32,000 nt of DNA, taken from assembly GCA_016700015.1 (NCBI GenBank), contig CP064995.1, positions 960,001-992,000 of the forward strand, written 5' to 3'. The notes below the pieces were generated by a model that saw nothing but the letters and a program-made list of their open reading frames with translations, was not told the origin of the DNA and did no database searches. Position 1 is the stretch's first letter. Each line of letters starts with the position of its first letter. The stretch comes from Candidatus Saccharimonadota bacterium (GTDB taxonomy: Bacteria > Patescibacteriota > Saccharimonadia > Saccharimonadales > Saccharimonadaceae). Both the position numbers and the translations under genes were made by a program. Of this stretch, positions 9,726 to 28,813 are shown one piece after another.

Positions 9726-9743
9726 TAAGATAGCTTCTCTGTT

Positions 9744-9752
9744 ATTGTACCA
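9744..9752 (-). promoter_or_regulatory. candidate extended -10 (TGGTACAAT) in the 44-nt gap between the two giant genes
   Basis: The minus strand reads GGTTATGGTACAATAAC, the same TTATGGTA core as other starts. It lies 18 nt from GTG 9725 and 33 nt from ATG 9710. Confidence 0.3.
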
Positions 9753-9769
9753 TAACCGAGATGGGGCTA

Positions 9770-12700: not shown

Positions 12701-14614
12701 GAGTTGGAGTAAAGAAGTGGTGGCTCCATACGAATCGTAGGTAGATGAGGTTTGCACTGTTGCGTAAAAAGCTGGCAAATCATTTGTAGGTGTTCCTGAT
12801 GCATTACCTGGCCAGCTAGAGGGGAGCGGGCCCCACGTTTGTCCGCTGTTGGTCCATGTAGCAACGTTTGTTCCACCACCAGTTGTCGTCCTAAAACAGT
12901 TTTGGTTAGTGGCGGTACCATTAGTGAAATAAACGATCCAGTAACTTGTACCACTTGTCACTGCTGTTGGGCTGACACTTACAGCGTTCCAACCGTTTAC
13001 AAGTGTTGTTGCACTACTCTGAGTAAGCAGGGTACCGGGTGTACCAGCATTATTAGTGAAAAGACCCATTCGGAACTGGTTGTTGGGTGACGCACTGATC
13101 GGACAAGTCATATAAACGGATAAGCTGATAACATTTCCGTTTACACCAGAACTGTACAGACCGGCTTCGAGTCGGCCGTTGTCGTCGTTGTCAGTTGCTG
13201 TTCCAGTCGTAGTATTACCAAATACACTCGTGCTGCTTGCAGCAAGGCCCGAGTTGATCTTGAAGGTTGAGTTATCACTCGCGTCAGCTCCTAGATACCA
13301 CGATTCGGAAGGCGTCTTAATTTGCAAGGTTGCATCACCTGTTCCTTTTTGCTCGATGAGGGTTTGAGGGTTTGATGTGACGCTATTGTTGACGGCGACT
13401 TGGAGTGTCGTCGTTGGTGCTCCCCCGGTTGCACCGACACCAACTCGGCTATTTGTAGTATCTACAGTGACGACATCCGACGTGCCGGCGGCATTTTGGA
13501 CTTTTAGAGCGGTAGCACTGTCCGTAAGTGGGCGAATAGCCGGTGCGTACACGGCACCACCAAAGTAGCCGTTGCGCCAAGTGTAGGTGCTTGAACCAAT
13601 GTCGATAGTATTCGCATAGGCCGTTCCTGGGGTGAGGCTGGCATTGATAGCGACGCCAGTGAGATTGTCTAGTTGGCGGGTTGCACCAGCCGATCCGCAG
13701 TTGGCGGCGGTTTGAAGACAAATTGTGTCGGTGGCAGCAGTTGAATCTGGCAAGATAATGGTTCGATTGGCAGTCAATACACTAGTTTGAAGCGTTAGGC
13801 TGTAGCCATCGGTTGTGCCATCGCTCAACACAAGCTTACCTTGGGTTACCGTGCCGCTGGTGGCAATGCGGCCGAGGGTGAGCTGGTTGCCGGTATTGTT
13901 GAAAGCAGCATTGATGTTTCCGGCACTGTCTTGCAGTCTGAACATATCGACTGTTTGGGCCGAGGCGCCTTGAACAACCGCGCCCACACTACTAGCACTG
14001 GCGCTCTGCACTGCGATATTAGCAGTCTGTACAGTTGTCGTATTCTGAATAAACCCACTAGCGTCACGACCACCAAGCATGGTGGCGTTCATCGCGTAGG
14101 CAACTGAAGAGAGGCGTTTCATAGGGAGCATTTCGTCATCAGGCGAACAGCTTGTGAAGGGCGTACATGTCGTGTTGGTATTGCCGATATTCATACTCAG
14201 CCACAAGGTGTCGGAGTTCCAGTCCACTTGAGTACCAAACGGATTGATAGACCCCAGCTGCACGGACATATAGCCATTGACAACTAAAACGCCCTGGCTC
14301 GAAGTATTAAGCCAGCTTTCAGTCCATTTCAAAGTACCACCAGGGTTACCGGCAGCAGTGCCGGTGCCGTCTTGATAGATCTTGAACTGGACGTTGTAGT
14401 AGCCGTCGGGCACAACAGCACCCTGGGCGTTCAACAGACGTCCTTGGAAATTCATTTGTTGGTTGGTGGCCGCGTGCGCAGCTGGTGCAGCAAAAATGCC
14501 AACACCAAATACGCCCAGTAGAAGGGCGCCTACAAATAGTATGCGCGTTAGCACACCAGCCAAGCTGATTGTGGTGTTTGTGTTAATGGTGGGTCCGGCT
14601 CCGATATTCGCCAA
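9770..14614 (-). CDS. giant (about 1600 aa) secreted adhesin-like surface protein with two CBM4/9-like modules
   Basis: Uninterrupted 4.8-kb frame. Signal peptide ...LTRILFVGALLLGVFGVGIFAAPAAHA/ATNQQ. Thr/Ser/Gly/Asn-rich beta-type sequence. Two jelly-roll-like modules end in SFYVDNLSVT (approx. 11010-11480) and TFAVDSFSMT (approx. 10520-10990). Ends with a double stop, TAGTAG. The track start at 14614 is TTG; GTG at 14554 (MLTRILFVG...) would give a textbook signal peptide. Confidence 0.85.
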   Translation of the reverse strand: MANIGAGPTINTNTTISLAGVLTRILFVGALLLGVFGVGIFAAPAAHAATNQQMNFQGRLLNAQGAVVPDGYYNVQFKIYQDGTGTAAGNPGGTLKWTESWLNTSSQGVLVVNGYMSVQLGSINPFGTQVDWNSDTLWLSMNIGNTNTTCTPFTSCSPDDEMLPMKRLSSVAYAMNATMLGGRDASGFIQNTTTVQTANIAVQSASASSVGAVVQGASAQTVDMFRLQDSAGNINAAFNNTGNQLTLGRIATSGTVTQGKLVLSDGTTDGYSLTLQTSVLTANRTIILPDSTAATDTICLQTAANCGSAGATRQLDNLTGVAINASLTPGTAYANTIDIGSSTYTWRNGYFGGAVYAPAIRPLTDSATALKVQNAAGTSDVVTVDTTNSRVGVGATGGAPTTTLQVAVNNSVTSNPQTLIEQKGTGDATLQIKTPSESWYLGADASDNSTFKINSGLAASSTSVFGNTTTGTATDNDDNGRLEAGLYSSGVNGNVISLSVYMTCPISASPNNQFRMGLFTNNAGTPGTLLTQSSATTLVNGWNAVSVSPTAVTSGTSYWIVYFTNGTATNQNCFRTTTGGGTNVATWTNSGQTWGPLPSSWPGNASGTPTNDLPAFYATVQTSSTYDSYGATTSLLQLTNTGRLTLRNSIDSTSAFSVQNAAQASVLLADTTNNRVGIALANGETASYDLSFGGGTDRIIGVNTNTSTGAGRSLTLQGGGGNGTNQAGGAVNIIGGAPTGSGVRGAVNLQTTVNGDVNIGNAGSAANTVTLTAGATNGIKLVSDKIMVGNATTTTTIQKTTQTTAGQAGQQLTIQGATSGTTGVGGAVLIQGGNSATGTTGGNLTLAGGTGTTSNGLVILNTSAFQTIANDANCFPSGTESTSSSGCTVAQTSVNNYASVIVGFTQDGQTATLPDPSIATAGRVVYVTASNLTKDFTLSVNGGGQGNQIAMRKNTTATMIWNGADWTAAGASSSTTLQAAYDNTLQSAGGAELVVSKTSATNGLTIRDSSTNPVNGTLLSVQTKSAAGLLQVNSNVTEYASNAGAETAGASATTFPASTWSSTGTATVTRQNVAGSYIATGQGSVSIAATAANSGAKNQLINSSGSAAALTANTTYNVSFTTRLTSGSSTFTDLNVQYSADGNTTLLTACGATSAVNTSIWTKVNCTFTTPASGITSGNAILIRQTASATRSFYVDNLSVTIAADYNFATDGSVNDSGNYATNWPNSGQGTVTSSRITSDGNDASDSAQAAVTTGAANAGIRNKLSSNPLSSTLYRVTVYGKLISGAAFTDFKVRYSYLGSTSTTAGDYVDCVDYNTQTLVTTAWTKVTCYIQTDANTATNPYVYFVEAASGVRTFAVDSFSMTLASITTPNVQVGGGINGGPTTLFTLDKGASAPIASNNDALLGSMYYDTTLGKLQCYEADGWGACGSSPDNIVTISPEYTNAVLHGTGIGTMTSDLCSDYLNINDGSGSPAQPTICGTNETYNFYKWTSPQATAQTYAIYVTYQLPSTFKEFNSGQTSLMGRTDNGSNGGSATVQYQIYRNSGTGLTACGSTISVSTGTQTSWQIGNATGAADPSTCGFAPGNSIVFKIDMTTSKNANAYVGNLNFAFSNK

Positions 14615-14851: not shown

Positions 14852-15811
14852 CTAGGCTGCCAACAAGAGGCCGCGCTTTTCGAGTAGACGCTTTTCGCGC
14901 CACTCACCAATCCAAAAACTTACTACCACGGCGAAGGTAGCAGCAAATAGCGGCCATAGTACCAGTAGCACATTAGTCGTTTCTTTGGTGGTAGCTGCTA
15001 CTGCGGCGTCAGGGTCGGGCTGGCCATTAACAATACTAGCTACGGTGATGAAGGCAACACGCCCGTCAGCATCGGTTGCCTGGACCGATAGTTGGTAGGT
15101 GCCGGCTTTCTGGTAAGTGTGGGCAGTGCGGAAGCTGGTGTTGTCGGGCCGCGATACTACTTTATTTGTGCTGTCGCCCCACTGAATGTTGATGGCATAT
15201 GGTGCGCGGCCACCGATGATGTCGAGCGGAATTGTCATTTCTTTACCTGGGAAAGTACCACGGAATACCGCATCGGTGTTGAGGAGTAGTTGTGGGCCGC
15301 CGAAATTGAGCTGAGCAAATGGGCTGCCAGTACCTGTGGGCGCGTCGAAATAAACCACCACACTACCCGAGTCCGGGCCGACTTGGTTGAGGGCATCAAA
15401 CACCTTTGCAACTAGTGTATTTTGGCCAATGAGTAGATCGATCTCAAAACTAAACGTTCCGTCGCTGGAGCACACTGCCGAACCGGCAAAGATATCATTT
15501 TTAAATAACTCAACAAGCGTGTCTTTAGGACAGGTTCCCGAAACGACCACAGGGGTTTGGCTAAAACGCTGGCCGCTGGTTGGTGTTTTGATTACTGCGG
15601 CAGTGGTTGGTGGCTTGCCGGGTACGGTGCCATACATACCTATCGATCCAGCGGCCGGACCTGGCCGCTCCCAAGCGGTTGCCGTGTAGGTAGTGAGGCA
15701 TACACCGACCACAAATAGTAATAGTGCCAGCGGTACATATGAGGTATGTTCGTGTGGTCGTACTTTTGCTGTGTGTTTGTGATGCGTCAGCTTCAATAGC
15801 TTCCTAAGCAT
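14852..15811 (-). CDS. membrane protein anchored at both ends with Ig-like and PKD-like ectodomains
   Basis: His-rich N-terminus MLRKLLKLTHHKHTAKVRPHEHTSY followed by the TM VPLALLLFVVGVCLTTY. Ig-like segment PVVVSGTCPKDTLVELFKNDIFAGSAVCSSDGTFSFEIDL. PKD-like segment YAINIQWGDST...HTYQKAGTYQLSVQATDADGR. C-terminal TM VLLVLWPLFAATFAVVVSFWIGEW plus a basic tail. Confidence 0.8.
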   Translation of the reverse strand: MLRKLLKLTHHKHTAKVRPHEHTSYVPLALLLFVVGVCLTTYTATAWERPGPAAGSIGMYGTVPGKPPTTAAVIKTPTSGQRFSQTPVVVSGTCPKDTLVELFKNDIFAGSAVCSSDGTFSFEIDLLIGQNTLVAKVFDALNQVGPDSGSVVVYFDAPTGTGSPFAQLNFGGPQLLLNTDAVFRGTFPGKEMTIPLDIIGGRAPYAINIQWGDSTNKVVSRPDNTSFRTAHTYQKAGTYQLSVQATDADGRVAFITVASIVNGQPDPDAAVAATTKETTNVLLVLWPLFAATFAVVVSFWIGEWREKRLLEKRGLLLAA

Positions 15812-15817
15812 GTGCCT

Positions 15818-15826
15818 AGTATACCA
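15818..15826 (-). promoter_or_regulatory. extended -10 (TGGTATACT) 6 nt upstream of the ATG at 15811, in leaderless geometry
   Basis: The minus strand reads AATTATGGTATACT-AGGCAC-ATG, inside the 28-nt gap after the DUF916-like gene. Confidence 0.45.
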
Positions 15827-15839
15827 TAATTGTTATTGC

Positions 15840-16838
15840 CTAGCGACGGCGGGAGCGGCGAGAGCGGCCAAGCAGGCGTTCGTTGTAGCGCAGGATAGCC
15901 GCACGAATTGCGATGATAGCGACGGTGAGCAGGAACAGTATCAGAAGGATAAGTCGCCAAGGAATAACCCAAAATGAGAGAGTTTGAGTTGTAGTAAGCT
16001 TATCGCCGTAGTTGAGCTTCAGCTCAGCAGTGTATCGTCCGAACAGGAAGCCGGTTCCTAGTGCAGCTTTGTCGAGTGGCTGAGTGAATTTGCGAACACT
16101 CTTGGGCAAAATATTACGCGCTTCGCTATTGACATTGATATTAACGACTGGTTTGCCAAACATATCTTTGACGAGTATGGTGCCGACAGGTTGTTCATAC
16201 ACATTGCCTTCATTATTGACACGCTCAACAAAATTAAACGGTATCTCTTCGAAAAATGTCGATTTTTTATCGTCTTTTTCCATATAAAATTCAGCAATCG
16301 TTAGTTTTTCAGTTGCCGCACCTTTGACGCGAATCAAAATCAGCGCTCCGAGACTCGGTGCGAGCGACACGCTACTGGTGGTGCCTGCTGGTGCACTTGC
16401 AGTGAAACGCACCACACCGTAGTAGCCGCCCGGTGCAGCATTCGCTGGTACTTTTATTTCGAGCGGAAGTTTTTCGAGCTGCTTAGGCTTTAGGGTAAGG
16501 TTTGGAAACTTGCTTACCCACGGTATAAGACTATAGGGGCTGGGCTCAGCATCGTCGGTAATCACTCGTGGATTACCGCTTTCGTCGCCACTTGCAGTAA
16601 AGTCATTAATCTCACTCGTGACGAACAGCGCTGAATTTGACACATCGCGGATTGCAATCTCCGATTTGATGGTTTCGCCCGGATCAACAACAAAGTTGAG
16701 TACGGGTGGTGCGATTTCAAGCGCTAGCCCTTGTTGATTGTTGGCTGGCGGGTCAACTGCACTTACCAGTGCGGTTGTAAAAAGCGTGACCGTGAAGCCT
16801 GCAATCAATGTGGTGATAATGGATAAGCTATATTTCAT
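15840..16838 (-). CDS. DUF916/DUF3324-like cell-surface protein (CscA/DufA-like): signal peptide, two beta-sandwich-like halves, C-terminal TM anchor
   Basis: Signal peptide MKYSLSIITTLIAGFTVTLFTTALVSA. The N-terminal half (LEIAPPVLNFVVDPGETIKSEIAIRDVSNSALFV...LTLKPKQLEKLPLEIKVPANAAPGGYYGVVRFTA) fits the DUF916 pattern as I remember it. The C-terminal half (KLTIAEFY...VNNEGNVYEQPVGTILVKD...ILPKSVRKF...GRYTAELKLNYGD) fits the DUF3324 pattern. TM WRLILLILFLLTVAIIAI plus RSRRSRRR tail. Start is 6 nt after the preceding gene's stop. Confidence 0.55.
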   Translation of the reverse strand: MKYSLSIITTLIAGFTVTLFTTALVSAVDPPANNQQGLALEIAPPVLNFVVDPGETIKSEIAIRDVSNSALFVTSEINDFTASGDESGNPRVITDDAEPSPYSLIPWVSKFPNLTLKPKQLEKLPLEIKVPANAAPGGYYGVVRFTASAPAGTTSSVSLAPSLGALILIRVKGAATEKLTIAEFYMEKDDKKSTFFEEIPFNFVERVNNEGNVYEQPVGTILVKDMFGKPVVNINVNSEARNILPKSVRKFTQPLDKAALGTGFLFGRYTAELKLNYGDKLTTTQTLSFWVIPWRLILLILFLLTVAIIAIRAAILRYNERLLGRSRRSRRR

Positions 16839-16844
16839 GGTGAT

Positions 16845-18002
16845 CTAATAGGTCGGAGTACAAATGTACGTTAAGGTGGTGCTATACGTACCTGCGGTCA
16901 GGTTACCGGCTACATTGGCGATGTATGAGATAGTGTATAACTGACCATTGGTCGGGCCGGTGCCGCCATTGTCACTGCCAGCTATTACATCACCGGTCGA
17001 AAACTTGAAGTTATTCACGACATTGTAGTCAGATGCCGGCTGGCCGCGTAGGTCTGTACCATTTGGCGCGGGGTTGATATCTGCACTCGAGCCTGGAAAA
17101 CTACTAATTCCGGTGGGACCGCCAGTGTTTGTGTTGGCGCGAAGGTTGAGACCGAACTGGTTAGAACCCTTAGACCCAGCCACTGGAGCATCGGCCGCTC
17201 CCGGCGCCATAGCGGTGATTGTACTGGTACCCGATGTAAGGGTTGGTCCATTGACTGTGATAACATATCCTGAAAAGGCATTGGTACTGGCGGCCATTTG
17301 TGACTTTGCGATTGCGGTATCTTGGGGGGAGAAGAGTTGGTTAAATTCGATGACACCAGTTGTAGCGGTTGTGCAGTCAGGTACTGAACCATTCATCGAT
17401 ATTGTGCCGCCGGTACAGAAGATGAGACTTTCGGGCATAACACCACTAAGCTGGATCGCTGTAGCGGTACTGGCTGCAACCGAACCGGTGTCGATGGCCG
17501 TACCGGTGCCGTCCAGGCTACTAAATGTGCTGATGCGGACGAAGAAGGTGTAGTTGGTCGTTGTCGGGTTCTTGATGTTGTTGAGCTGGATGACTAAGGC
17601 ACCGCCTGCTGGGTTGGACGCGGCAGCACGTTTGACGATGACACTATTGACAGTTGATGCATGCACAGACCAGCCCGTGACAGCGGAGCCCGTATCCGTA
17701 ACTCCAGTGACGATGGACGCATCCATACCAGTCGGGGCGGTGCAGGCGACTTTGGAAGCAACAGTACAATATTCAAAGAGCACTGAACCGAGTGCGGTGC
17801 CAAGGGTAGGTATGGTAAACGTCAGCTTGTGGTTGACATTGCCGCCAGGCAAAGAGCCACCGACATTACCAACACCGATCAATGTTAATGATCGAGACGT
17901 AATCTGGTCTGCACTGGCTAGTCCCGACTGCAAAGTGACAGTGACGCCCGCCGCAACCAGCAACACACTTAAAACGTATGCAACTCCCCTCACACTTTTC
18001 AT
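16845..18002 (-). CDS. secreted two-domain surface protein, large paralog A (WxL-like C-terminal domain)
   Basis: The ATG at 18002 gives the signal peptide MKSVRGVAYVLSVLLVAAGVTVTLQSGLASA/DQ. It is clearly paralogous to 18107-19333 (shared blocks FFVRISTxxSLDxTGxAIDxGxVAAST, LSGVMPESLxFCTG, ASTNAxSGYxITVNGPTLTSG, QFGLNL, YSTTLTYICTPT[YF]). The track start at 18038 is a TTG that coincides with a -35-like hexamer. Confidence 0.8.
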   Translation of the reverse strand: MKSVRGVAYVLSVLLVAAGVTVTLQSGLASADQITSRSLTLIGVGNVGGSLPGGNVNHKLTFTIPTLGTALGSVLFEYCTVASKVACTAPTGMDASIVTGVTDTGSAVTGWSVHASTVNSVIVKRAAASNPAGGALVIQLNNIKNPTTTNYTFFVRISTFSSLDGTGTAIDTGSVAASTATAIQLSGVMPESLIFCTGGTISMNGSVPDCTTATTGVIEFNQLFSPQDTAIAKSQMAASTNAFSGYVITVNGPTLTSGTSTITAMAPGAADAPVAGSKGSNQFGLNLRANTNTGGPTGISSFPGSSADINPAPNGTDLRGQPASDYNVVNNFKFSTGDVIAGSDNGGTGPTNGQLYTISYIANVAGNLTAGTYSTTLTYICTPTY

Positions 18003-18008
18003 GTCCGC

Positions 18009-18038
18009 AGTGTACCATAAGCAAGACAGCTTGGTCAA
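18009..18038 (-). promoter_or_regulatory. promoter in leaderless geometry for paralog A
   Basis: The minus strand has TTGACC (18033-18038)-18 nt (ending TGG)-TACACT (18009-14), then 6 nt (GCGGAC), then ATG at 18002. No SD. Confidence 0.45.
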
Positions 18039-18054
18039 ATACTTTCGCTAACAC

Positions 18055-18084
18055 AAGCTACCACCTGTTGATAAGTGGCAGCTT
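18055..18084 (-). terminator. stem-loop 22 nt downstream of the paralog B stop (no U tract)
   Basis: The minus strand reads AAGCTGCCAC-TTATCAACAG-GTGGTAGCTT: a 10-bp stem with one G-U pair and a 10-nt loop. It is followed by GTGTTAGCG, so it is not a canonical intrinsic terminator. Confidence 0.3.
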
Positions 18085-18106
18085 GGAGAAACCGGGAATG
18101 GATATG

Positions 18107-19333
18107 CTAGAAAGTAGGGGTACAGATGTACGTAAGGGTAGTGCTATAGGTACCAGCTGGCTGACTACCTGGCACATTGGCGATGTAACTGACAGTGTAG
18201 ATCTGGGCATCAGAGGCACCGAGGCTGCCATCATCACTTTGCGCCACAGTATTGCCATCAACGAATTTGAACTCGTCCGTCACGCCATAGTCGGTAGTTG
18301 GCTGGCCACGAAGGTTGGTACCGTTTGGTGCTGGGACGACAGCCGAACTGCCAATAGTAAAGGGGGCGGTAACAGTTTCGATGCCGGCTGAGACTGCAGC
18401 ATTATTTGCAACAAGGTTCAGGCCAAACTGTGCAGTACCACGTACGCGAGTGCCGCGTGTTGCCATACCAGCAATCGTGTTGCTACCAGAAGTAAGCGTT
18501 GGTCCATTGACGGTGATAGTATAGCCTGAGCCCGCGTTCGTACTGGCTGCCATCTGTGATAGTGAATACGCGGTGTCGGTTGGCGAGAATAGCTTGTTGA
18601 ACTGAATGATGCCATCGGTCGCTGTTGAGCAGTCTGGCACGCCAGATGGCAGGCCAGTATCGGTGCTAACGGTCGCACCAGTGCAGAAGACGAGCGATTC
18701 GGGCATGACACCGCTTAGTTCGATTGGGTCAGCGGTGCTAGCGGCAACCGTACCACGGTCGATAGCAGCGCCAGTGGTATCAAGACTGTTGTATGTTGAG
18801 ATGCGGACAAAGAATGTACCAAGTACCGAAGGGTTAATCATGTCTTTTATATTGACCGTGACGGCAGTATTCGCGGGCACAGCCGCCTGTGAGCCCGGTG
18901 AACGGGTTAGGTAGTAAACATTAACCGATGCGCCGTTAACCTTTGTAAGGCCAGTAATACCAGAAGTGGTACCGAGTGTCGCTGTTGTTGAATCGAGCCC
19001 CGTTGGTGCAACACAGGTCAATGCGCCGACGTCAGCCGCAGTGGTACAGTATTCAAACTTGATTGAGCCTACCGGCGTGGCAGTCACCGAAGGAAGTGTG
19101 AAGGTAAATACGTGGTTTGCTTTCGAGTTGATATTTGGCACCGCACCACTGGGGCGAGAACCACCATTAAGCCCGCTTGGGTTGGTATCTGCAGCTTGCA
19201 GAGTAAGTGATCTTGTGACGATCTGATCGGCGCTTGCTCGGTTGGCAGGGAACGCGAGCTGCGCCACTACGACTGTGACAAGCAAAAACACGCTAAGCGC
19301 GCGATGTATGGTGGTGGATATAGGTTTTTTCAT
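18107..19333 (-). CDS. secreted two-domain surface protein, large paralog B (WxL-like C-terminal domain)
   Basis: The ATG at 19333 gives MKKPISTTIHRALSVFLLVTVVVAQLAFPANRASA/DQ. See paralog A for the shared blocks. Ends ...AGTYSTTLTYICTPTF. Confidence 0.8.
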   Translation of the reverse strand: MKKPISTTIHRALSVFLLVTVVVAQLAFPANRASADQIVTRSLTLQAADTNPSGLNGGSRPSGAVPNINSKANHVFTFTLPSVTATPVGSIKFEYCTTAADVGALTCVAPTGLDSTTATLGTTSGITGLTKVNGASVNVYYLTRSPGSQAAVPANTAVTVNIKDMINPSVLGTFFVRISTYNSLDTTGAAIDRGTVAASTADPIELSGVMPESLVFCTGATVSTDTGLPSGVPDCSTATDGIIQFNKLFSPTDTAYSLSQMAASTNAGSGYTITVNGPTLTSGSNTIAGMATRGTRVRGTAQFGLNLVANNAAVSAGIETVTAPFTIGSSAVVPAPNGTNLRGQPTTDYGVTDEFKFVDGNTVAQSDDGSLGASDAQIYTVSYIANVPGSQPAGTYSTTLTYICTPTF

Positions 19334-19371
19334 GGTGGATTTTTGTTTTTTTGTTAAGGTTTCTACCAGAG

Positions 19372-19400
19372 ATATTACCATGAGCGTTGTAGTGTGTCAA
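19372..19400 (-). promoter_or_regulatory. near-consensus sigma70 promoter for paralog B
   Basis: The minus strand has TTGACA (19395-19400)-17 nt ending TGG-TAATAT (19372-19377). A leader of about 40 nt follows, A-rich (AACAAAAAAACAAAAATCCACC), before the ATG. Confidence 0.5.
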
Positions 19401-19458
19401 CAATTTTTACCATATTTTTCATATCACTATGCGTGATCAGTCTGCAGCCTGTGGATAA

Positions 19459-20199
19459 CTAATAGGTACCGGTCACGATCAGTGTCTGATAGCTAGTGTA
19501 AGTACCGCCAGGGGTGATGCCCGCGACATTGGCGAGGAAACTGATAGTATAAGTGGTCTTACCAGAGCTCTTTGGCGCACTGGCGATAGTTTCACCAGCT
19601 ACATAGCGAAATTCATTAGGTGTCGTGTAATCAGCATAATTTGGTGAGCTAGGCCCATTGCCAATCTGTCCAAAGCCAAACTGGCCATTGTCGAGATTAG
19701 CGCCAAAGCTTGCTGGCGATGTGTTAGCAACAAGATTGATACCAAACTGCTCAATGCCAGGCTGAGAGATATTGGTAGTTGTCATGGCGTTGATTGATCT
19801 CCCATTATGTGAAGGTGGTGTGCCGGTCAGCTGCACGGCGTAGCCATAGCTTGTGTAGTTGATAACAGTGAACGTGGCAGTTCCAGTTGACGCACTGTTA
19901 GCTGAAAATGTACCAAAGTCGATAAGCGCATTATTGACTGCAACACTCAGCACGGGGTCTGGACTAGTTTTTGATCCGGCATTAACTTGGAAGTTCGACG
20001 ATGCCGAGTTGCCAACTCCTAAATCACCGAACGCGGATTGCCCAATATAGCTTGATGAGCTTGATTGGGTCAGGCTGCCGGCCCCCACCGTCGGTTCATC
20101 GAATTTATAGTTGTTGGACTGCAACGTCTCGGCATGTGCAGGTGGTACGATAAGCGTTAGGCACACTAAGCATGCCAAAACAAATCGCCGCAGTTTCAT
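19459..20199 (-). CDS. secreted single-domain surface protein, small paralog (WxL-like)
   Basis: The ATG at 20199 gives the signal peptide MKLRRFVLACLVCLTLIVPPAHA/ETLQ. An N-terminal SxNY/F-type repeat region (SNNYKF, SSSYIG, SSNFQV) is followed by a domain collinear with the C-terminal domains of paralogs A and B (IDFGTFS, SYGYAVQLTG, QFGINLVANT, YTISFLANVAGITPGGTYTSYQTLIVTGTY). The longer track ORF (to 20340) would overlap the divergent gene and has no signal peptide. Confidence 0.75.
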   Translation of the reverse strand: MKLRRFVLACLVCLTLIVPPAHAETLQSNNYKFDEPTVGAGSLTQSSSSSYIGQSAFGDLGVGNSASSNFQVNAGSKTSPDPVLSVAVNNALIDFGTFSANSASTGTATFTVINYTSYGYAVQLTGTPPSHNGRSINAMTTTNISQPGIEQFGINLVANTSPASFGANLDNGQFGFGQIGNGPSSPNYADYTTPNEFRYVAGETIASAPKSSGKTTYTISFLANVAGITPGGTYTSYQTLIVTGTY

Positions 20200-20217
20200 A
20201 CCTGGGTCCATGCCGTT

Positions 20218-20269
20218 ATTGTGGGTGAACCGTAAGGATTTTGCAAGTTTTCCCCATAAGCGGTATACT
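20218..20269. promoter_or_regulatory. back-to-back divergent promoters sharing one palindromic -35 hexamer
   Basis: TTGCAA (20241-20246) is its own reverse complement. Plus strand: 17-nt spacer, then TATACT (20264-20269), for the gene at 20301. Minus strand: 17-nt spacer, then CACAAT (20218-20223), for the gene at 20199. Confidence 0.35.
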
Positions 20270-20300
20270 ATGAATTGGATACAAAACAAGAGAAACAGAC

Positions 20301-21332
20301 ATGAGCGAAGAGCCAAAACAAGCTGATGGTAGCGCCGCACCAGCGCCAGAACTGCTCACCACCCAAGATACGGGTGATGCTAAGTTTGCGACCCCTGAGC
20401 AGTCGATGGCAGCCCATGTCGACCATGCGCCTGCTACTGCAGTGAAACGCCGTATCGCTTATCGCCCTTCGCACAAAGCCACTTTCATTGGCCTGGCGGT
20501 TGTCGCATTAATTCTAGGGCTCAACGCTGTTATTTTATCAGTTGTTATGAAAAACAACGCCGACGCCCAGGATGCCAAGGTAAAGAACGGTGTGACAATC
20601 AGTGCTAGTACCCTCGATAAATTAGGGGTTAGTCGCAACCCGGTGGGAAATGCCGAAACCGAGCTTGTCGTCGGTCCCAACAGCACCTTTAATGGCAAAG
20701 TAGTGATGGGTGGAGACCTATCAGTCGCGGGAGTATTGCAGCTTAATAATAAGTTTACCGCTAGCGACGCTAGCCTTGCTAAACTGCAAGCAGGCGATGT
20801 GCAGCTGGAAAAGCTCAATGTCAACGGTGATGGCACGGTGTCGACACTGAATCTGCGTAAGGATCTACAGGTAGCTGGTACCACGAGGTTACAGGGGCCG
20901 CTGACGGTGAATCAATTAACGACTATCAACAATAACCTTAATGTGGCTGGTAATCTGGCGATTGGCGGTACGCTATCGGTGCGCAATTTCCAAGTGTCGA
21001 ACCTGACAGTAGCGGGCCATTTGATCAGCTCTGGCGGCAAGCCAGGTGTCAGTGTCGGCGGGGGTGCAGGTAGCAACGGCACTGTATCGCTTGATGGCAA
21101 CGATACGAGTGGTACTGTGGCGGTGAACACGGGTGTCGGTGCTGGTAGCGGCCTACTCGCCACTATTACCTTTGCCGAGCGATTTGCCAGCACGCCGCGT
21201 GTCGTTGTCACGCCAATTGGTCGTGCAGTACCAGGCCTCTACATCAATCGCACGTCGACAGGCTTTACTATTAGTGCTGATGGTGCGCTGGCGCCCGGTG
21301 GCTATGCGTTTGACTATGTTGTTGTACAGTAA
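20301..21332 (+). CDS. membrane-anchored protein with a beta-helix-like repeat stalk and an H-type-lectin-like C-terminal domain
   Basis: Cytoplasmic N-terminus, then TM ATFIGLAVVALILGLNAVILSVVM. Repeats of the type LxVxGxxxLxG (LSVAGVLQLNN, LQVAGTTRLQG, LNVAGNLAIGG, LTVAGHLISSG). The C-terminus, GTVAVNTG...ATITFAERFASTPRVVVTPIG...LYINRTSTGFTISADG...YAFDYVVVQ, resembles the H_lectin pattern (F..F...P.V......v..t..GF.i). Confidence 0.7.
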   Translation: MSEEPKQADGSAAPAPELLTTQDTGDAKFATPEQSMAAHVDHAPATAVKRRIAYRPSHKATFIGLAVVALILGLNAVILSVVMKNNADAQDAKVKNGVTISASTLDKLGVSRNPVGNAETELVVGPNSTFNGKVVMGGDLSVAGVLQLNNKFTASDASLAKLQAGDVQLEKLNVNGDGTVSTLNLRKDLQVAGTTRLQGPLTVNQLTTINNNLNVAGNLAIGGTLSVRNFQVSNLTVAGHLISSGGKPGVSVGGGAGSNGTVSLDGNDTSGTVAVNTGVGAGSGLLATITFAERFASTPRVVVTPIGRAVPGLYINRTSTGFTISADGALAPGGYAFDYVVVQ

Positions 21333-21334
21333 CC

Positions 21335-23886
<2,552 letters not shown>

Positions 23887-23890
<4 letters not shown>

Positions 23891-25389
23891 GATTTTACCT
23901 CAATTTTTTTCTTGTCTCTTTTATCGCTCTGTTCTGGGGCGGCCTCGACTGGTTTTTCTTCCACCGGTGCGAGCATCTCGGCTCGGAATTTTGCCAGTAG
24001 TTCGGCTTCAAGTTTGTCGTAATCTTCTTCGGTGTGCATATCGACCCCGCGGCCTTTCACAGCTTGCTTGAGGCTGGCAACATCGATAGCGGCATCGGTG
24101 TCGTTATTCATAATCGTTTCGAGGAGTAGTTGTTGCTCGGGCAGTGAGAAAAGCTGCTCTGGTGGCTGGCCTAGCGCTTGGTAGAGGTGACGTCCACGGG
24201 CTAGGTCGATTCGTGTCTCTCTACTGAGCTGACTTGAAAAGTGCGAGAATTCTTCGGCCTGATGGTAATGGGCCAGCGCTTTGAAGAGGGCAGTTGAAAG
24301 CTGTTTTTGACGCTTGGTCTGAGCTTGGCCACCGACACGGCTGACTGAAAGTCCGGCATTGACAGCAGGTCGAATACCTTTGCGGAAATAGCCTAGGTCA
24401 AAAATAATCTGACCGTCAGTGATCGACATGATGTTAGTACTGAGGTAGGCAGTGATATCATCGTTTGGGGTCAGGACTACCGGGAGACTGGTGAGGGTCT
24501 TATCATTGGTCAGCAGCTTACCTGCCCGTTCTAAAAGACTAGAGTGTGTGTAGAATATATCGCCCGGGTAGCTGTCACGCCCAGGGTCGACTTCTTGCAG
24601 TAGTGACAGTTGACGATAGGCCTCGGCGTGGCTACTCAGGTCGTCATAGATGATGATGACATCTTGCCCGCCGTACCACAGATGCTCGGCCATACTACAG
24701 GCGGCGTAGGGTGCAATATAACTCTGGGTGAGGCTGTCGAAAATATTGGCAAGCACGACGATCGTGTGCTCCATCGCTCCACTACGTTGCAGCTCGCTAA
24801 GGAGCCGTTCGATGTCGACTTTGCGCTTGCCGACCAGCACATACACAACAATTCGATCAGTGCCTTGCTGGTTGGCGCTGAGTTGGCTTAAGAAAGTGCT
24901 TTTCCCAGACTTACTGTCGCCGAGGATAGCAATACGCTGGCCAAGGACAATTGGGAAGAAACTATCGACAGCACTGACGCCGCTCGCGAGCTGTTCATTG
25001 AGCATTTTGCGGTCCATAATTCCTGGCGCCGGGGTAAAGATACCGCTCGTATTTGCCGTACGCACCATGCCTTTACCATCGAGCGGTTCACCCATCGGAC
25101 TAATTACCCGGCCGACGAGCTCAGGCCCAACGGGCACCTGCAGTTGGTCGAACTGGACGACGGCTAGGGCGCCGAGTGCTACGTTTTCACTGTCGATGTT
25201 GTACAGAATTACGCGATCGCCATAGGCTTCGCGCACCATGCCGCGCTGGCCATCATCAAACAGCACCTGGGAACCGATACGTACGCCCTCGAGACCTTTC
25301 ACTTCGACAATGAAGCGGTTAATAGCCACAACCTCACCAGTTAGATTGCCAGCTTCAACAAGCTGCTGGAAGATTTGGTTATCAAACAC
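23887..25389 (-). CDS. atpA: F1 ATP synthase alpha subunit (divergent P-loop GDSKSGKST)
   Basis: RIAILGDSKSGKSTF (versus the canonical GDRQTGKT), DVIIIYDDLSSHAEAYRQLSLL, PGRDSYPGDIFYTHSSLLERAGK, and ITDGQIIFD. GTG start with a GAGGTG SD 7 nt upstream. Charged C-terminal tail. Confidence 0.9.
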
Positions 25390-25867
25390 GGGTCAGCACC
25401 TCACCAAATCGGTAGCGTTCATTAAGTATCGTTCGACGGAATGACCAGTCAAAAATCCGGCTGCCAAACCGTACAACCATACCGCCGAGTAGGGTAGAAT
25501 TGAAACGAAAACTAATAAGGATGTCAGGCGCGATATTACTGCGCGCCCATGCTACGAGGGCTTTTTTGACTTCATTTGTAGCCGGAGCGGCTAAGGTGAT
25601 TGTCATAACTTTTGCTTGCGCCTTGGTAGTTTCGAGCTGTGCGATTAGCGCTTCTAGGCTGGCGCTTGTCATACCATCAGCACTACGCGCGAGCTTTAGT
25701 ATTTCGATGGCAGCGGGTGAAAGTTCGGGCTGCGGTTGAGTATACTGCGTCTGCACTCTTTCGGCGATGACATATTGGTTAAACCATTTGGCGTAGCCAC
25801 GAATTTCGATAATCAAACTCATGAGGTCTTCTTTAGAGCTAATGGTAGCTGGGAGATTATACACCAT
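25382..25867 (-). CDS. atpH: ATP synthase delta (OSCP) subunit
   Basis: The C-terminus, ...ISFRFNSTLLGGMVVRFGSRIFDWSFRRTI, fits the OSCP pattern (iiGG..v..g....D.S). The ATG at 25867 is preceded by an AAGGAG SD 7 nt upstream (the track start at 25873 is TTG). Overlaps the end of atpF. Confidence 0.75.
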   Translation of the reverse strand: MVYNLPATISSKEDLMSLIIEIRGYAKWFNQYVIAERVQTQYTQPQPELSPAAIEILKLARSADGMTSASLEALIAQLETTKAQAKVMTITLAAPATNEVKKALVAWARSNIAPDILISFRFNSTLLGGMVVRFGSRIFDWSFRRTILNERYRFGEVLTRV

Positions 25868-26762
25868 TTTCAATCTCCTTTTTGAGCTCGTCTTTATGCT
25901 CTTCGAGCTGCGCGGTTAGGTAGGGAAGTTGGGCGCCCAGGTCGACATTGTGGCGCAGGGTTTCGGTCAGGAAAGCCGCCATCATATCACCGAGTTTCGC
26001 ATCGAGTTGGCTAGCGAGGGTATGGCGCCGTGCCTCCATTTCTTGGGTAAGCTTGTCTTCCATAGCGGCAAGGTGCGCAGCATGCTGTTTTTGGCGCTCC
26101 AAAAACTCGGCGTTTAAATCAGCCTGGTGTTGTGCTAGTACGGTTTCGCGCTGCTTGAGCGCGGCCTCAAGCTCTGTCTGGCGCTGAGCCAGCTGGGCTT
26201 CGGTTTCGGCCTGCTTGGCGGCGTAGTCGGCCTGCTTTTTTTGGAATTGTTCTTCAATCTCGCTATTGCGCGCAGCAAGTTTGGCCTGTAGTTCGGCTTC
26301 GTAGGCGCGGAGCTTGCTGTCCATTTCTTCCTGGCGAGCAGCAAATTTCTCGCGCATCTCGGTCTGGTGCTCAGCCAGCAGTGCTTGGGCGTTGGTAATA
26401 CTAGTGGCCGTGCCTTCACGCAGTTCGTCGAGGCCTTCACGGTAAAGACGCAGCTCGTCACTCATGATACCATCGCCCAGTTTGTCGAGCTCACGGCTTA
26501 ATTTTTCAGTTGTTGACTCAAGATTTTTCTGTAGCTCTTCGGCGTTCTTGCGCAGGATCTTCTGGTAATCTTCTTCGGCTTCGTCTAGAATCCGGCGCCG
26601 TGAATCGAGCGGCAGTATGGGCATGGCCTGCGGCGCAGTGGGTGAGGGCGCATCGGACTTAAAGTGCGCCCGTGCATGAGTAAAAGCGATCGTCGCTATA
26701 ACACCTACTACAAATACGTTGATGAGCAGGAAGACGGTTAGCAGTATATCCCCACCAAACAT
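25857..26762 (-). CDS. atpF: ATP synthase b-like peripheral-stalk subunit, unusually long (301 aa)
   Basis: Single N-terminal TM (ILLTVFLLINVFVVGVIATIAFT) followed by ~260 aa of Ala/Glu/Gln/Lys/Arg-rich helix. Sits immediately upstream of atpH. Confidence 0.65.
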   Translation of the reverse strand: MFGGDILLTVFLLINVFVVGVIATIAFTHARAHFKSDAPSPTAPQAMPILPLDSRRRILDEAEEDYQKILRKNAEELQKNLESTTEKLSRELDKLGDGIMSDELRLYREGLDELREGTATSITNAQALLAEHQTEMREKFAARQEEMDSKLRAYEAELQAKLAARNSEIEEQFQKKQADYAAKQAETEAQLAQRQTELEAALKQRETVLAQHQADLNAEFLERQKQHAAHLAAMEDKLTQEMEARRHTLASQLDAKLGDMMAAFLTETLRHNVDLGAQLPYLTAQLEEHKDELKKEIENGV

Positions 26763-26766
26763 CGCG

Positions 26767-27600
26767 CTACAGTCTCGTCAATACAATATAAATTGCTATC
26801 ACCGATACCCCGATTACTGCCATTACGACCACTGACAGCTGAATAAGGTTGCGATATACAGCCGATTGCGCCATTGGGTTACGGCCGATGCTAATGATGC
26901 TACTGCGGATCATACTGTATATGATGCTCGTAACGGTAATAAGCATGATGATAAAAACAGCACTACTAATGATAATGGGCAGGGAATCGACTTTTTTGCC
27001 AGCCACAGTATTCGCCAGGTTTTGCAGTGTGGCCGGGATGATAGTTTTGTCGGGCTGTTTGTAGTGATAGCTCACACTCACCAGCACCGGTACTTGCCCG
27101 ACAGATATTTCTTGCTCGGCACTGTCGACAGTCACTTTTTGCTTCGACACGCCGCTCAGTGTGCCCTGCGCGATGCCGACTACTTTGGCATTGTAGGTGG
27201 CTTTCATGCCGACGCCTTTTACCGCTGACGCCGTAATAGGATCACCCTGTTTAATTTCGCCATTAATATCGCTTGCCAGCACTGGCACAACGCCGCTGGT
27301 TGCTACCTGCACCTGGTTTTTGCTACCAGTGTTGAGGGTAAGCGGTGAGGTTCCGTCGTTTACCACCACTCCGACAATACTTTCGCTGTTGTTTGTGTCG
27401 GATAGCACTACGTGGTCGGTGGTATTTTGAGTGAGGCTAACGATGGAGCCAATCGACGTGGTTTCGTCGGCCGAATAGCCCTGAGAAATTGCAGTAATCG
27501 CTTGAGCAACATAGGGAAGGGACATGACAAAGCCTGCGGCAGCGATTGCAGCCACAGACACACGAAATACACTAGAGGCGCGTAGCCGGTTGGTGGTCAT
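26767..27600 (-). CDS. secreted-domain protein with a C-terminal c-subunit-like two-helix hairpin, first gene of the atp operon
   Basis: The ATG at 27600 gives the signal peptide MTTNRLRASSVFRVSVAAIAAAGFVMSLPYVAQA. A ~170-aa ectodomain follows, then LPIIISSAVFIIMLITVTSIIYSMIRSSIISIGRNPMAQSAVYRNLIQLSVVVMAVIGVSVIAIYIVLTRL. The stop is 4 nt before the atpF ATG. AGAGGGGA SD upstream, and TATACT at 27628-27633 (minus) as a possible -10. Confidence 0.75.
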   Translation of the reverse strand: MTTNRLRASSVFRVSVAAIAAAGFVMSLPYVAQAITAISQGYSADETTSIGSIVSLTQNTTDHVVLSDTNNSESIVGVVVNDGTSPLTLNTGSKNQVQVATSGVVPVLASDINGEIKQGDPITASAVKGVGMKATYNAKVVGIAQGTLSGVSKQKVTVDSAEQEISVGQVPVLVSVSYHYKQPDKTIIPATLQNLANTVAGKKVDSLPIIISSAVFIIMLITVTSIIYSMIRSSIISIGRNPMAQSAVYRNLIQLSVVVMAVIGVSVIAIYIVLTRL

Positions 27601-27684: not shown

Positions 27685-27783
27685 ATGAAGCGTCAAGCAG
27701 GATTTACAGTACTGGAGCTGATTGTGGTGGTCGTCGCGATCATCATACTACTGGTCATCGCCTACCTCGCGGCGCGCCAATAG
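27685..27783 (+). CDS. 32-aa peptide consisting only of a type IV prepilin-type leader plus hydrophobic alpha-1N helix
   Basis: I translated this myself; it is below the ORF-track cutoff. MKRQAGFTVLELIVVVVAIIILLVIAYLAARQ*. It matches the prepilin cleavage/methylation motif (K/R)xxG|FT(L/V)(I/L)EL with Glu at +5. TAG at 27781-27783, 8 nt before the next ATG. Confidence 0.5.
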   Translation: MKRQAGFTVLELIVVVVAIIILLVIAYLAARQ

Positions 27784-27791
27784 GAAGGCGA

Positions 27792-28415
27792 ATGCTTTCG
27801 ATTACCAATAGCATACTCACAAAGTATCCGATTATTTCTAACCAGGTAGACAAGCATGAACTGGTAGTATTGCTTGGTGAGCTTGAGCGTCTTTTACAAA
27901 GTGGCACGCAGGGAAACGTTGTGGAGTTCGGTTGTTACGCCGGCACCACGTCACTGTTCATTCGTCGGCTGCTCGACGCCTACAAAAGCACGGCTGAATT
28001 TCATGTCTATGATTCGTTTGCGGGTCTCCCCGAAAAATCAGCTGAGGACAGCAGCGCCGTGGGGGATTGGTTCCGCCCGGGCGAGCTGCTGGCGACAAAG
28101 AAAGACTTCATACTCAATTTTAAAAAGGCAGGTCTTGTGCTGCCGGTTATGCATAAAGGCTGGTTTACAGAGGTGAGTGCTGGCAGCATCCCGCCAAATA
28201 TTATGTTTGCATTTTTAGACGGCGATTACTATCGGTCAGTCAAAGACTCGCTACGGCTGATTACGCCCAATCTTGCTCCGGGTGCTGTGATTGTCGTCGA
28301 TGACTATGCAAATGAAGCCTTGCCCGGTGCAGCCAAAGCAGTGGGTGAGTGGGGCAATACCCATCCACATAGATTGCAAGTTATACGTAGCCTTGCGATA
28401 ATCAGGATGGAATGA
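27792..28415 (+). CDS. class I SAM-dependent methyltransferase, TylF/macrocin-O-methyltransferase-like
   Basis: Motif I VVEFGCYAGTTS, VYDSFAGLPE, FLDGDYYRSVKDSL and VIVVDDY match the TylF-family pattern (E.G...G, DSF.G.P, D.DlYeSt, DDY). Confidence 0.75.
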   Translation: MLSITNSILTKYPIISNQVDKHELVVLLGELERLLQSGTQGNVVEFGCYAGTTSLFIRRLLDAYKSTAEFHVYDSFAGLPEKSAEDSSAVGDWFRPGELLATKKDFILNFKKAGLVLPVMHKGWFTEVSAGSIPPNIMFAFLDGDYYRSVKDSLRLITPNLAPGAVIVVDDYANEALPGAAKAVGEWGNTHPHRLQVIRSLAIIRME

Positions 28416-28813
28416 ATACCATAAACAGCACGCTTCGCTTACGGCAATTCTTGGCAGTTAAAGAAGTCATCATGATGACACTTGTGGTGGCAAACCTTTT
28501 GCTTCTCGCCTATGAGCACTTTTTTGAGCCACCCTACAGCCAGATGGTCGCAATCGAGGCATTCGATGTCGCTACGGCTATCGTTTTCCTGGCAGAATTT
28601 ATTTTTGAATGGCACTGGGCTAAGGATCGTGCCTTGTATCTGCGTCACCACTGGTTTTATTTGCTAGCAGCGGTGCCGGTACCAAGCACGACCTTCGAAC
28701 TACTACGTGGTATTCGCGCTTTGCGCCTGTTAAAATTACTCAAGATTTTTGCGCATATGCGCTACGAGCGGAACACGCGATTGTTTGAAGCAGCCCGTCA
28801 GGCAGGCAAGTAA
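28412..28813 (+). CDS. stand-alone voltage-sensor-domain-like membrane protein (S1-S4, no pore)
   Basis: ATGA overlap with the methyltransferase. Four hydrophobic segments. The S4-like segment LRGIRALRLLKLLKIF has R/K at every third position (five charges). The S2-like segment ...AIVFLAEFIFEW contains FxxE. The protein ends 15 aa after S4. Confidence 0.65.
   Translation: MNTINSTLRLRQFLAVKEVIMMTLVVANLLLLAYEHFFEPPYSQMVAIEAFDVATAIVFLAEFIFEWHWAKDRALYLRHHWFYLLAAVPVPSTTFELLRGIRALRLLKLLKIFAHMRYERNTRLFEAARQAGK

Follow-up and report, generated by a model that had tools for sequence, protein, structure and literature searches.

F1-like ATPases with a membrane part other than Fo are known, and those whose work at the cell surface is mechanical, in place of making ATP, have until now been regarded as a specialty of mycoplasmas. 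Among the mycoplasma "F1-like X0" enzymes, Type 2 is the G1-ATPase of the Mycoplasma mobile gliding motor, encoded by MMOB1610-1670 (PMC3369863, PMC11864180, PMC12994834), and Type 3, encoded by MMCAP2_0575-0581, is required for MIB-MIP antibody cleavage and was termed "specific to mycoplasmas" in a 2026 paper (PMC12994834). The mycoplasma proteins MMCAP2_0577 and MMOB1650 each consist of a signal peptide, an ectodomain and two C-terminal transmembrane (TM) helices, and their cross-linked co-purification with the F1-like part and with surface effectors has been reported (PMC12994834). Here we analyze a 32,000-nucleotide (nt) stretch from a Candidatus Saccharimonadota bacterium (GenBank contig CP064995.1, positions 960,001 to 992,000), which as a whole is called the window below. 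It carries an operon for an F1-type ATPase that is headed by ORF277, a gene for a 277-amino-acid (aa) membrane protein standing in the place of atpE. We favor, with moderate confidence, the reading that ORF277 is a dedicated membrane (X0) subunit of a second Saccharimonadia F1-type ATPase, which coexists with a canonical F1Fo enzyme encoded elsewhere. The c slot of what is probably a second F1 operon is thereby filled by a genuine, conserved protein that lacks the carboxylate.

By analogy of gene content and protein architecture, the closest known analogue of the window system is the group of mycoplasma F1-like X0 ATPases. Both occur in genome-reduced, host-dependent bacteria as an extra alpha/beta/gamma/epsilon cluster beside canonical F1Fo (for Saccharibacteria probably so, by published KEGG Orthology (KO) counts from related genomes), neither cluster includes a gene for subunit a or c, and both are tied to surface proteins and not to bioenergetics. 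ORF277 has the same order of signal peptide, ectodomain and two C-terminal TM helices as MMCAP2_0577 and MMOB1650, a likeness of architecture and not of sequence. Unlike the mycoplasma clusters, the Saccharibacteria cluster has a delta subunit and a b-like stalk, follows the canonical gene order, and is without the 12-TM protein and the small cytoplasmic protein; ORF277 itself differs from its mycoplasma counterpart in its small ectodomain (~170 aa) and its c-type GRNP loop. The window's alpha and beta subunits score higher with canonical than with mycoplasma-specific NCBIfam models (alpha, 410 vs 252-312 bits; beta, 449 vs 338-370 bits), and the scores with the mycoplasma models are under the cut-offs of those models (MSC_0619 alpha, 252 vs 520; MSC_0618 beta, 370 vs 570; MMOB1660, 312 vs 600; MMOB1670, 338 vs 850). 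Because the two kinds of cluster differ in genes, gene order, loop and alpha/beta scores, an origin independent of the mycoplasma ATPases is likely.

In the Candidate Phyla Radiation (CPR), ATPase-adjacent "a, b, c" genes without homology to known subunits were described in the phyla WWE3 and OP11, with a TM "putative c" common to both (Kantor et al. 2013, PMC3812714). Those operons resemble that of the window, by description only, in combining recognizable F1 genes with an unrecognizable TM protein in the c position; the report includes no anatomy of the protein, no family analysis and no link to a second F1 set or to surface proteins. We found no paper in the literature tying "F1-like" to Saccharibacteria or Patescibacteria, and the system is apparently undescribed in CPR bacteria. 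The N-ATPase is likewise a second F-type operon beside a main one; unlike the window operon, it has its own a and c subunits with an ion-binding site, carries AtpQ and AtpR, lacks delta, and follows another gene order. We rejected N-ATPase identity on the scores of alpha and beta, which are well under the cut-offs (TIGR03324, 352 vs 750; TIGR03305, 405 vs 752) and lower than with the canonical models, on gene order, on the presence of delta and on the lack of a and c, and V/A-type identity was rejected on scores and gene order.

The F1-type operon

The operon consists of seven packed open reading frames (ORFs) on the minus strand (21335-27600), which encode, in order, ORF277 and b-like, delta, alpha, gamma, beta and epsilon proteins, with junctions that range from a 4-nt gap to a 17-nt overlap. 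The original prediction for this DNA had read the order as ORF277-atpF-atpH-atpA-atpG-atpD-atpC with the same range of junctions, and the ORF coordinates agree, with the atpF slot being b-like by position and architecture. It had also held that neither atpB nor a normal atpE belongs to the operon. Indeed, atpB (subunit a, PF00119) and a canonical atpE (subunit c) are absent from the operon and from the entire window, as judged by the ORF list, Pfam and a further search for c, and no polytopic membrane protein is encoded in the operon or adjoining it within the window. On the 5′ side of ORF277 lie only a 32-aa mini-ORF on the plus strand (27685-27783) and a divergent gene for a TylF-type methyltransferase. 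A scan for promoters and terminators gave sites no commoner than chance.

The five subunits from delta to epsilon were all matched by Pfam, and all scored under the NCBIfam cut-offs for canonical F0F1 equivalogs. Delta/OSCP (163 aa; 25382-25873, minus strand, as are all genes of the operon) matched PF00213 at E=4.4e-7, with an NCBIfam score of 27 vs a cut-off of 57.5. Alpha (500 aa; 23887-25389) matched PF00006 and PF00306 and reached 393 bits with TIGR00962 (cut-off 484) and 410 bits with a further canonical NCBIfam model (cut-off 554); its relatives carry the PGAP name "sodium-transporting two-sector ATPase". Gamma (286 aa; 23030-23890) matched PF00231 at E=3.5e-28, with 80 bits for TIGR01146 vs a cut-off of 194. 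Beta (480 aa; 21588-23030) matched PF00006, came closest to its equivalog (TIGR01039, 449 bits vs 463) and has a GGAGVGKT P-loop and a GER motif. Since beta keeps the P-loop and the GER glutamate and alpha keeps the SRVGG arginine, all conserved catalytic features visible in the translations, the window ATPase looks catalytically competent. Epsilon (86 aa; 21335-21595) matched PF02823 at E=7.7e-9 (NCBIfam, 29 vs a cut-off of 67) and comprises the N-terminal beta-sandwich only. The C-terminal helical domain, which inhibits ATP hydrolysis in many bacteria, is missing from it.

The second gene of the operon (25857-26762) encodes a 301-aa protein in which an N-terminal TM helix leads into a long coiled coil. 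It is a candidate for the peripheral stalk, assigned by position and architecture only, and the Pfam and NCBIfam scans gave it no ATP-synt_B match. Most related operons have a b-like protein of ~200 aa (216 aa in locus L001, 200 aa in L025), and the longer version in the window suggests that the presumed peripheral stalk grew longer as a lineage-specific change.

Anatomy and conservation of ORF277

ORF277 (26767-27600, minus strand) starts with an ATG at 27600, preceded by a GAGGGG ribosome-binding site, and is further defined by a family of homologues and an AlphaFold2 model. In the numbering of its own 277 residues, a signal peptide (aa 1-34, ending AQA34) is followed by a beta-rich ectodomain (aa 35-205; 26986-27498, minus strand) and a C-terminal two-helix hairpin (aa 206-277; 26770-26985, minus strand), in which TM1 covers about aa 208-231, the cytoplasmic loop region aa 232-254 and TM2 aa 255-275. 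The mature N-terminus is an SQGY stretch that is invariant in the family. The Pfam and NCBIfam scans matched no family to the protein. An AlphaFold2 model of the full length, made from a 30-sequence alignment, has a beta-rich ectodomain at 38-180, a short helix, and two long helices at 207-240 and 244-276 that are joined by a turn at N241-P242-M243, inside the conserved SIGRNPMAQ stretch. Modeled alone with 60 diverse relatives, the hairpin reached a predicted local distance difference test (pLDDT) score of 94.7, with helices at model positions 6-39 and 41-75. The signal peptide and ectodomain place the start of TM1 outside the cell, which gives a predicted topology with the loop in the cytoplasm and both termini outside. 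Thus the parts that had been predicted (a signal peptide, a ~170-aa ectodomain and two C-terminal TM helices around the SIGRNPMAQ loop) are borne out by sequence and model alike, and so is the N-out/loop-in topology proposed by comparison with c subunits.

The same is true of the residues by which the hairpin had been compared with subunit c. Counting from the loop arginine, a basic residue (R250) stands at +10 and a methionine (M260) at +20, the position of the Glu/Asp in c subunits; neither helix of the window protein has an acidic residue, and there is no GxGxGxG motif. ORF277 has 1688 close clusters, of which every named one is from Saccharibacteria and annotated "hypothetical"; an exact look-up showed no identical copy of it on record in public assemblies. 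An exhaustive hidden Markov model (HMM) search found 5266 representatives (50% identity) at E<=1e-3 and 476 at E<=1e-30; the best 150 are nearly all full length (250-300 aa), and the family, where named, is almost entirely from Saccharibacteria. Among representatives 28-42% identical to ORF277 there are about a dozen invariant columns, and the four adjacent ones are G239-R240-N241-P242 (codons 26875-26886, minus strand), invariant in alignments A1, A3 and A5. GRNP is kept in 143/143 motif-bearing representatives at 50% identity, the set used for all conservation counts, with GRQP and ARNP as rare variants in the family.

In this set, Asp or Glu was found in 0/143 members at every position of helix 2 from +16 to +29 and in 2/143 at +30, so the missing ion-binding carboxylate is, by alignment, a property of the whole family and not a peculiarity of the copy in the window. 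TM1 is nearly free of acidic residues as well (5/143 at a single position). Its consensus is aliphatic with scattered Ala, Ser and Gly that do not make up the GxGxGxG packing motif, and arginines are conserved at both of its ends. The core of neither helix contains a conserved polar residue.

The ectodomain has likenesses of a different kind. In Foldseek searches the full-length model matched solely phage proteins, through the ectodomain, the fold of which is close to that of phage capsid decoration/cement proteins (DUF2190 type) and to the C-terminal barrel of the phi29 gp12 pre-neck appendage protein. These matches had E of about 1e-4 against the PDB and down to 6e-8 against viral models, some with 20-24% identity. 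On the strength of these models, the ectodomain may be a phage-derived or phage-shared oligomerizing domain on a bacterial membrane protein.

Relation of the hairpin to subunit c

ORF277 shares with F-type subunit c (PF00137) a two-helix hairpin of the same topology, a G/A-R-N/Q-P cytoplasmic loop with a basic residue about 10 positions later, and a gene directly ahead of the b gene. It differs from subunit c in having no ion-binding Glu/Asp, no GxGxGxG, an extra signal peptide and 170-aa ectodomain, and a sub-threshold Pfam score. Searched against 177,635 distinct PDB sequences at E<=10, a profile of diverse hairpins (A5) had one match only, subunit c of Chloroflexus aurantiacus (PDB 9itj; E=0.028), with both helices in register, GRNP on GRNP, and the glutamate of c opposite a hydrophobic column. 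A profile of close hairpins (A2) found nothing in the same sequences at E<=10. When the hairpin was compared with 24 real Chloroflexota c subunits by hhalign, the probability was 87.6% (P=3.5e-6). In a Foldseek search with the hairpin model the top matches were nearly all F-type c subunits, and those that superposed well had TM-scores of 0.75-0.82 and a root-mean-square deviation of 1.5-1.8 Å.

Several results weigh against descent from subunit c, and with it against the reading that we favor. The E-values of the c subunits in the Foldseek search were 0.6-3, and helical hairpins of such length find c subunits in the PDB anyway. PF00137 had no match to the window protein at E<=1 and matched just 1/60 hairpins (E=0.0096, below the gathering score). 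With GRNP masked, the hhalign signal was gone (score 7.8), and with GRNP fixed and the remaining columns shuffled the mean score was 24.4, with 5/200 shuffles reaching the real score of 32-33. After these shuffling controls we do not take the 88% hhalign probability as proof of homology. ORF277 also fails the defining functional features of the c family, in that it has no carboxylate. Given the masking and shuffling controls, the likeness to c is carried mostly by the loop motif, and what can be demonstrated at the level of sequence is a four-residue motif in the structurally expected position, to which the flanks add a modest signal. The register of the earlier by-eye alignment with c is correct by both the PDB profile match and hhalign, and its statistical content is mostly that of the motif.

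We nonetheless find descent of the hairpin from subunit c the most economical reading, because the loop motif, the position before the b-like gene and the matching topology all fit it. It is unproven, and we lean toward it only slightly. That the likeness of ORF277 to c is merely convergent is not established either.

Genomic contexts of the ORF277 family

To survey gene neighborhoods, one genome per species was scanned with the motif [SN][SE]IISIGRN, which gave 80 loci, or 81 with L001 added. The 80 loci are mostly labeled Saccharibacteria or Saccharimonadia, and the remainder have generic or other submitter labels. In 54/81 loci (class A) the ORF277 homologue precedes the genes for delta, alpha, gamma, beta and epsilon, and in most of them a b-like gene was detected between; BLAST missed the b-like gene in a few divergent loci. 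The family thus fills the atpE slot ahead of the b-like gene in these 54 loci, and the synteny with atpF that had been put forward as a check on the prediction is conserved over 28-72% identity. A canonical c was found within 10 kb in 0/81 loci; subunit a is absent, like c, from the window operon and was not searched for in the 81 related loci. One locus, L061 (4337-10777), is the only one in which the ORF277 homologue is divergent from the genes running from b-like to epsilon.

A second arrangement (class B; 14 classified loci, up to ~20) forms a monophyletic clade nested within the class A tree. Its typical order is parA-parB-lepB, an ORF277-like gene, and a gene for a giant protein of 1400-3300 aa, and the complete genome CP025011 is included. 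These giants have a "M-E-N-Q-N-Q-N-T" type N-terminus, a cytoplasmic tail and a single TM helix. Some class B genomes have two modules of ORF277-like gene plus giant on one contig (115-6921 and 9980-20815 in L039; 2610-8001 and 11030-13439 in L068), separated by a few genes such as parA and parB, which suggests that the pair duplicates as a unit.

Giant proteins of the same type also stand directly after epsilon in ~13 class A operons. In 10-12 other class A loci, including the window and belonging to two distant clades, a protein of 320-356 aa with the same topology, homologous or of like architecture, is convergent on epsilon; in the window this is a 343-aa surface protein (20301-21332, plus strand) that has a single TM helix and an intracellular N-terminus. 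It may be a partner of the ATPase, its position being conserved in related loci. Further from the operon, the window encodes two giant proteins (3201-14614, minus strand). One, of 1614 aa, has a signal peptide, and the other, of 2174 aa, combines Kelch beta-propellers and a glycine-rich domain with a single TM helix and a basic tail in the cytoplasm; homologues of both adjoin class B genes, for example in L029, L055 and L064. The ORF277 family, the Fo-less F1 and one-TM surface proteins with their N-termini inside the cell travel together.

A probable second F1 set in Saccharibacteria

Canonical ATP synthases are described in this phylum. Southlakia epibionticum has an operon running AtpZ/I-a-c-b-delta-alpha onward and one F1 set (PMC10633639 supplement), and complete ATPase clusters are found in rhodopsin-bearing freshwater Saccharibacteria (PMC9296517). 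In published BlastKOALA counts, TM7x and RAAC3 have a single copy of each ATPase subunit, the complete genomes of Ca. Saccharimonas aalborgensis, GWC2_44_17 and Ca. Mycosynbacter amalyticus contain two copies of alpha, beta and gamma against one of a, b and c, and for several bins assigned to the order CAILAD01 the counts include alpha, beta, gamma and epsilon and no a, b or c (PMC12592800 Table S5). The authors of the table left the duplicated alpha, beta and gamma without comment (PMC12592800).

The nearest named relatives of the window belong to Ca. Saccharimonas, and a metagenome-assembled genome labeled S. aalborgensis (L009) has the same operon. Because these relatives show two F1 sets and one a/b/c set in their KO counts, we infer for the genome of the window that its operon is probably a second, Fo-less F1-like ATPase, with normal a and c genes elsewhere in the genome. 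In sequence searches, the alpha of class A retrieved F1-like orthologues only and no canonical Saccharibacteria set, and Chloroflexus subunit c retrieved Chloroflexota only. Of the two readings that the original prediction had offered, the second, with the real a and c genes elsewhere and a convergent hairpin, gains from the KO counts in its first half, the second half being no more than a possible convergence. The first, a degenerate rotor or anchor subunit with an F1 uncoupled from ions, agrees with the c slot filled in 54/81 loci, the conserved GRNP and the absent carboxylate, with homology to c as its unproven part.

Proposed role and alternative explanations

The role of ORF277 in the operon is best described as that of a rotor or anchor subunit which lacks the carboxylate, bears an extracellular domain and belongs to an ATPase uncoupled from ion flow. 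How such a machine would work can be proposed by analogy, with much less confidence than we have in its overall identity. In c-rings, the R(Q/N)P loops dock the foot of gamma and epsilon. The hairpin of ORF277, derived from subunit c or mimicking it, would oligomerize in the membrane, and its GRNP loop could dock the gamma/epsilon foot in the same manner, with the b-like and delta proteins holding alpha3beta3. ATP hydrolysis would then cause a rotation or a push that is unable to move ions, and the motion might be passed across the membrane to the ectodomain and to the neighboring one-TM surface proteins with their N-termini in the cytoplasm, the giants of 1400-3300 aa among them. What results would be mechanical work at the surface of the epibiont, as attachment, movement or remodeling of surface proteins. 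That the peripheral stalk and epsilon are retained speaks for a persisting rotor-stator relationship; the ectodomain's trimer-type fold and the class B context devoid of F1 call for caution. In its fullest form, the proposal is of a rotor descended from a c-ring, with an extracellular domain acquired and ion binding given up. Driven by an F1 and stator of its own, it would transmit torque or a power stroke through the membrane and so move the giant surface proteins of an epibiotic CPR bacterium. An F-type rotary motor would thereby serve as a mechanical engine at the surface, used in attachment, motility or attack on hosts, with an origin separate from that of the mycoplasma gliding and MIB-MIP ATPases. 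In this form we consider it speculative and, taken whole, unlikely.

To the weak points of the hairpin comparison given above must be added that coexistence with a canonical operon comes from published KO counts of related genomes and not from the window's own genome, that a fold typical of trimeric phage proteins is awkward for a ring of 8-15 copies, and that F1 genes are not adjacent in class B loci, so the family can be encoded, and perhaps work, apart from F1. Homologues lying commonly away from atp genes, together with canonical atpB-atpE elsewhere in the genome, had been foreseen as refuting the c-slot reading; the class B clade accounts for at least 14 loci away from atp genes, and 54/81 loci lie beside F1 genes. 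These same observations feed an explanation in which the ORF277 family are general membrane partners (anchors, platforms or chaperones) of giant surface proteins that make no contact with F1, with their place in the operon reflecting co-regulation or shared use and the loop being convergent. Such a role would account for the direct pairing of ORF277-like genes with giants in class B, sometimes as two modules per contig, for the collapse of the c likeness when GRNP is masked, and for an ectodomain fold used by trimeric phage proteins. It fits poorly with a gene that heads the F1 operon directly before the b-like gene in 54/81 loci and with the position of class B as one derived clade within the tree of class A. 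The element most conserved in the protein is, moreover, cytoplasmic, a loop of precisely the kind to which gamma and epsilon bind in c-rings, and the retained gamma and epsilon imply a docking partner in the membrane, for which the operon encodes no other candidate. We regard this explanation as rather improbable.

A dedicated X0 subunit in a second ATPase must also be weighed against the idea that the window operon is the sole F-type ATPase of its genome, with a lost and c degenerate, leaving either a membrane-tethered ATPase coupled to no function or a remnant, regulatory or in decay. Apart from the missing a, the genes are ordered as in a canonical operon, several CAILAD01 bins have alpha, beta, gamma and epsilon with no recognizable a, b or c, and canonical ATP synthase was dispensable in a cultured Saccharibacterium (PMC10633639). 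We judge this idea improbable all the same, as complete genomes of the same family have two F1 sets with one a/b/c set, the seven genes are intact and keep their order over deep divergence, and the hairpin and loop are very strongly constrained, unlike what is expected of decay. Less plausible still is that ORF277 forms an ion-translocating ring with a non-carboxylate site, working with an unrecognized partner in place of a. The c-like hairpin, the peripheral stalk and the arginines conserved at both ends of TM1 would suit such a ring, but the 143 members have no acidic or conserved polar core residue in either helix and no polytopic membrane protein is encoded in or adjoining the operon within the window. 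We know of no carboxylate-free ring in F-, V- or A-type enzymes that translocates ions, and we hold this last explanation to be very improbable.

If a dedicated X0 subunit of a second ATPase is the right reading, a widespread, independent counterpart in Saccharibacteria would mean that re-use of the rotary ATPase has occurred repeatedly in bacteria with reduced genomes that live attached to hosts. Annotations as "F-type ATPase" in CPR genomes would then have to be read differently: alpha/beta/gamma matches now count there as "nearly complete" ATP synthases and are used to infer energy metabolism. Metabolic reconstructions based on KO counts will score the cluster as a partial ATP synthase. The reading would further give concrete access to what the giant surface proteins of epibionts, still enigmatic, are for. 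With delta, a b-like stalk and a c-like hairpin all retained, the Saccharibacteria cluster could serve as a natural intermediate for asking how a rotor-stator machine uncouples from ion flow. Saccharibacteria that have two F1 sets can be cultivated with their hosts, Ca. Mycosynbacter amalyticus being an example, and genetics exists for the phylum, which makes the question testable.

Other genes of the window

Downstream of the operon, a run of secreted proteins of 293, 424, 397, 332 and 319 aa is encoded on the minus strand (14852-20340), with weak matches only, to DUF2808 and PKD/Ig. The 293- and 424-aa proteins have a common C-terminal "...GTY.....L......T(Y/F)" ending, and homologues of the 293-aa protein and of the 424/397-aa pair lie downstream of the operon in two distant clades (L001-L013 and L072-L080).

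On the other side, the 32-aa ORF divergent from ORF277 (27685-27783, plus strand; MKRQAGFTVLELIVVVVAIIILLVIAYLAARQ) consists of a prepilin-type N-terminal motif only. Equivalent ORFs of 32-40 aa occupy the same place in 9 close loci (with a PF07963 N_methyl match in L001) and are absent from more distant loci; this mini-pilin ORF was rejected as a general part of the system, being conserved only in those 9. Further along the plus strand, a 133-aa ORF (28412-28813) contains an S4-like helix, RxxRxxRxxK, and its match to Ion_trans covers only the first half of that family (profile positions 5-112 of 241). From its sequence, it looks like a stand-alone voltage-sensor domain without a pore.

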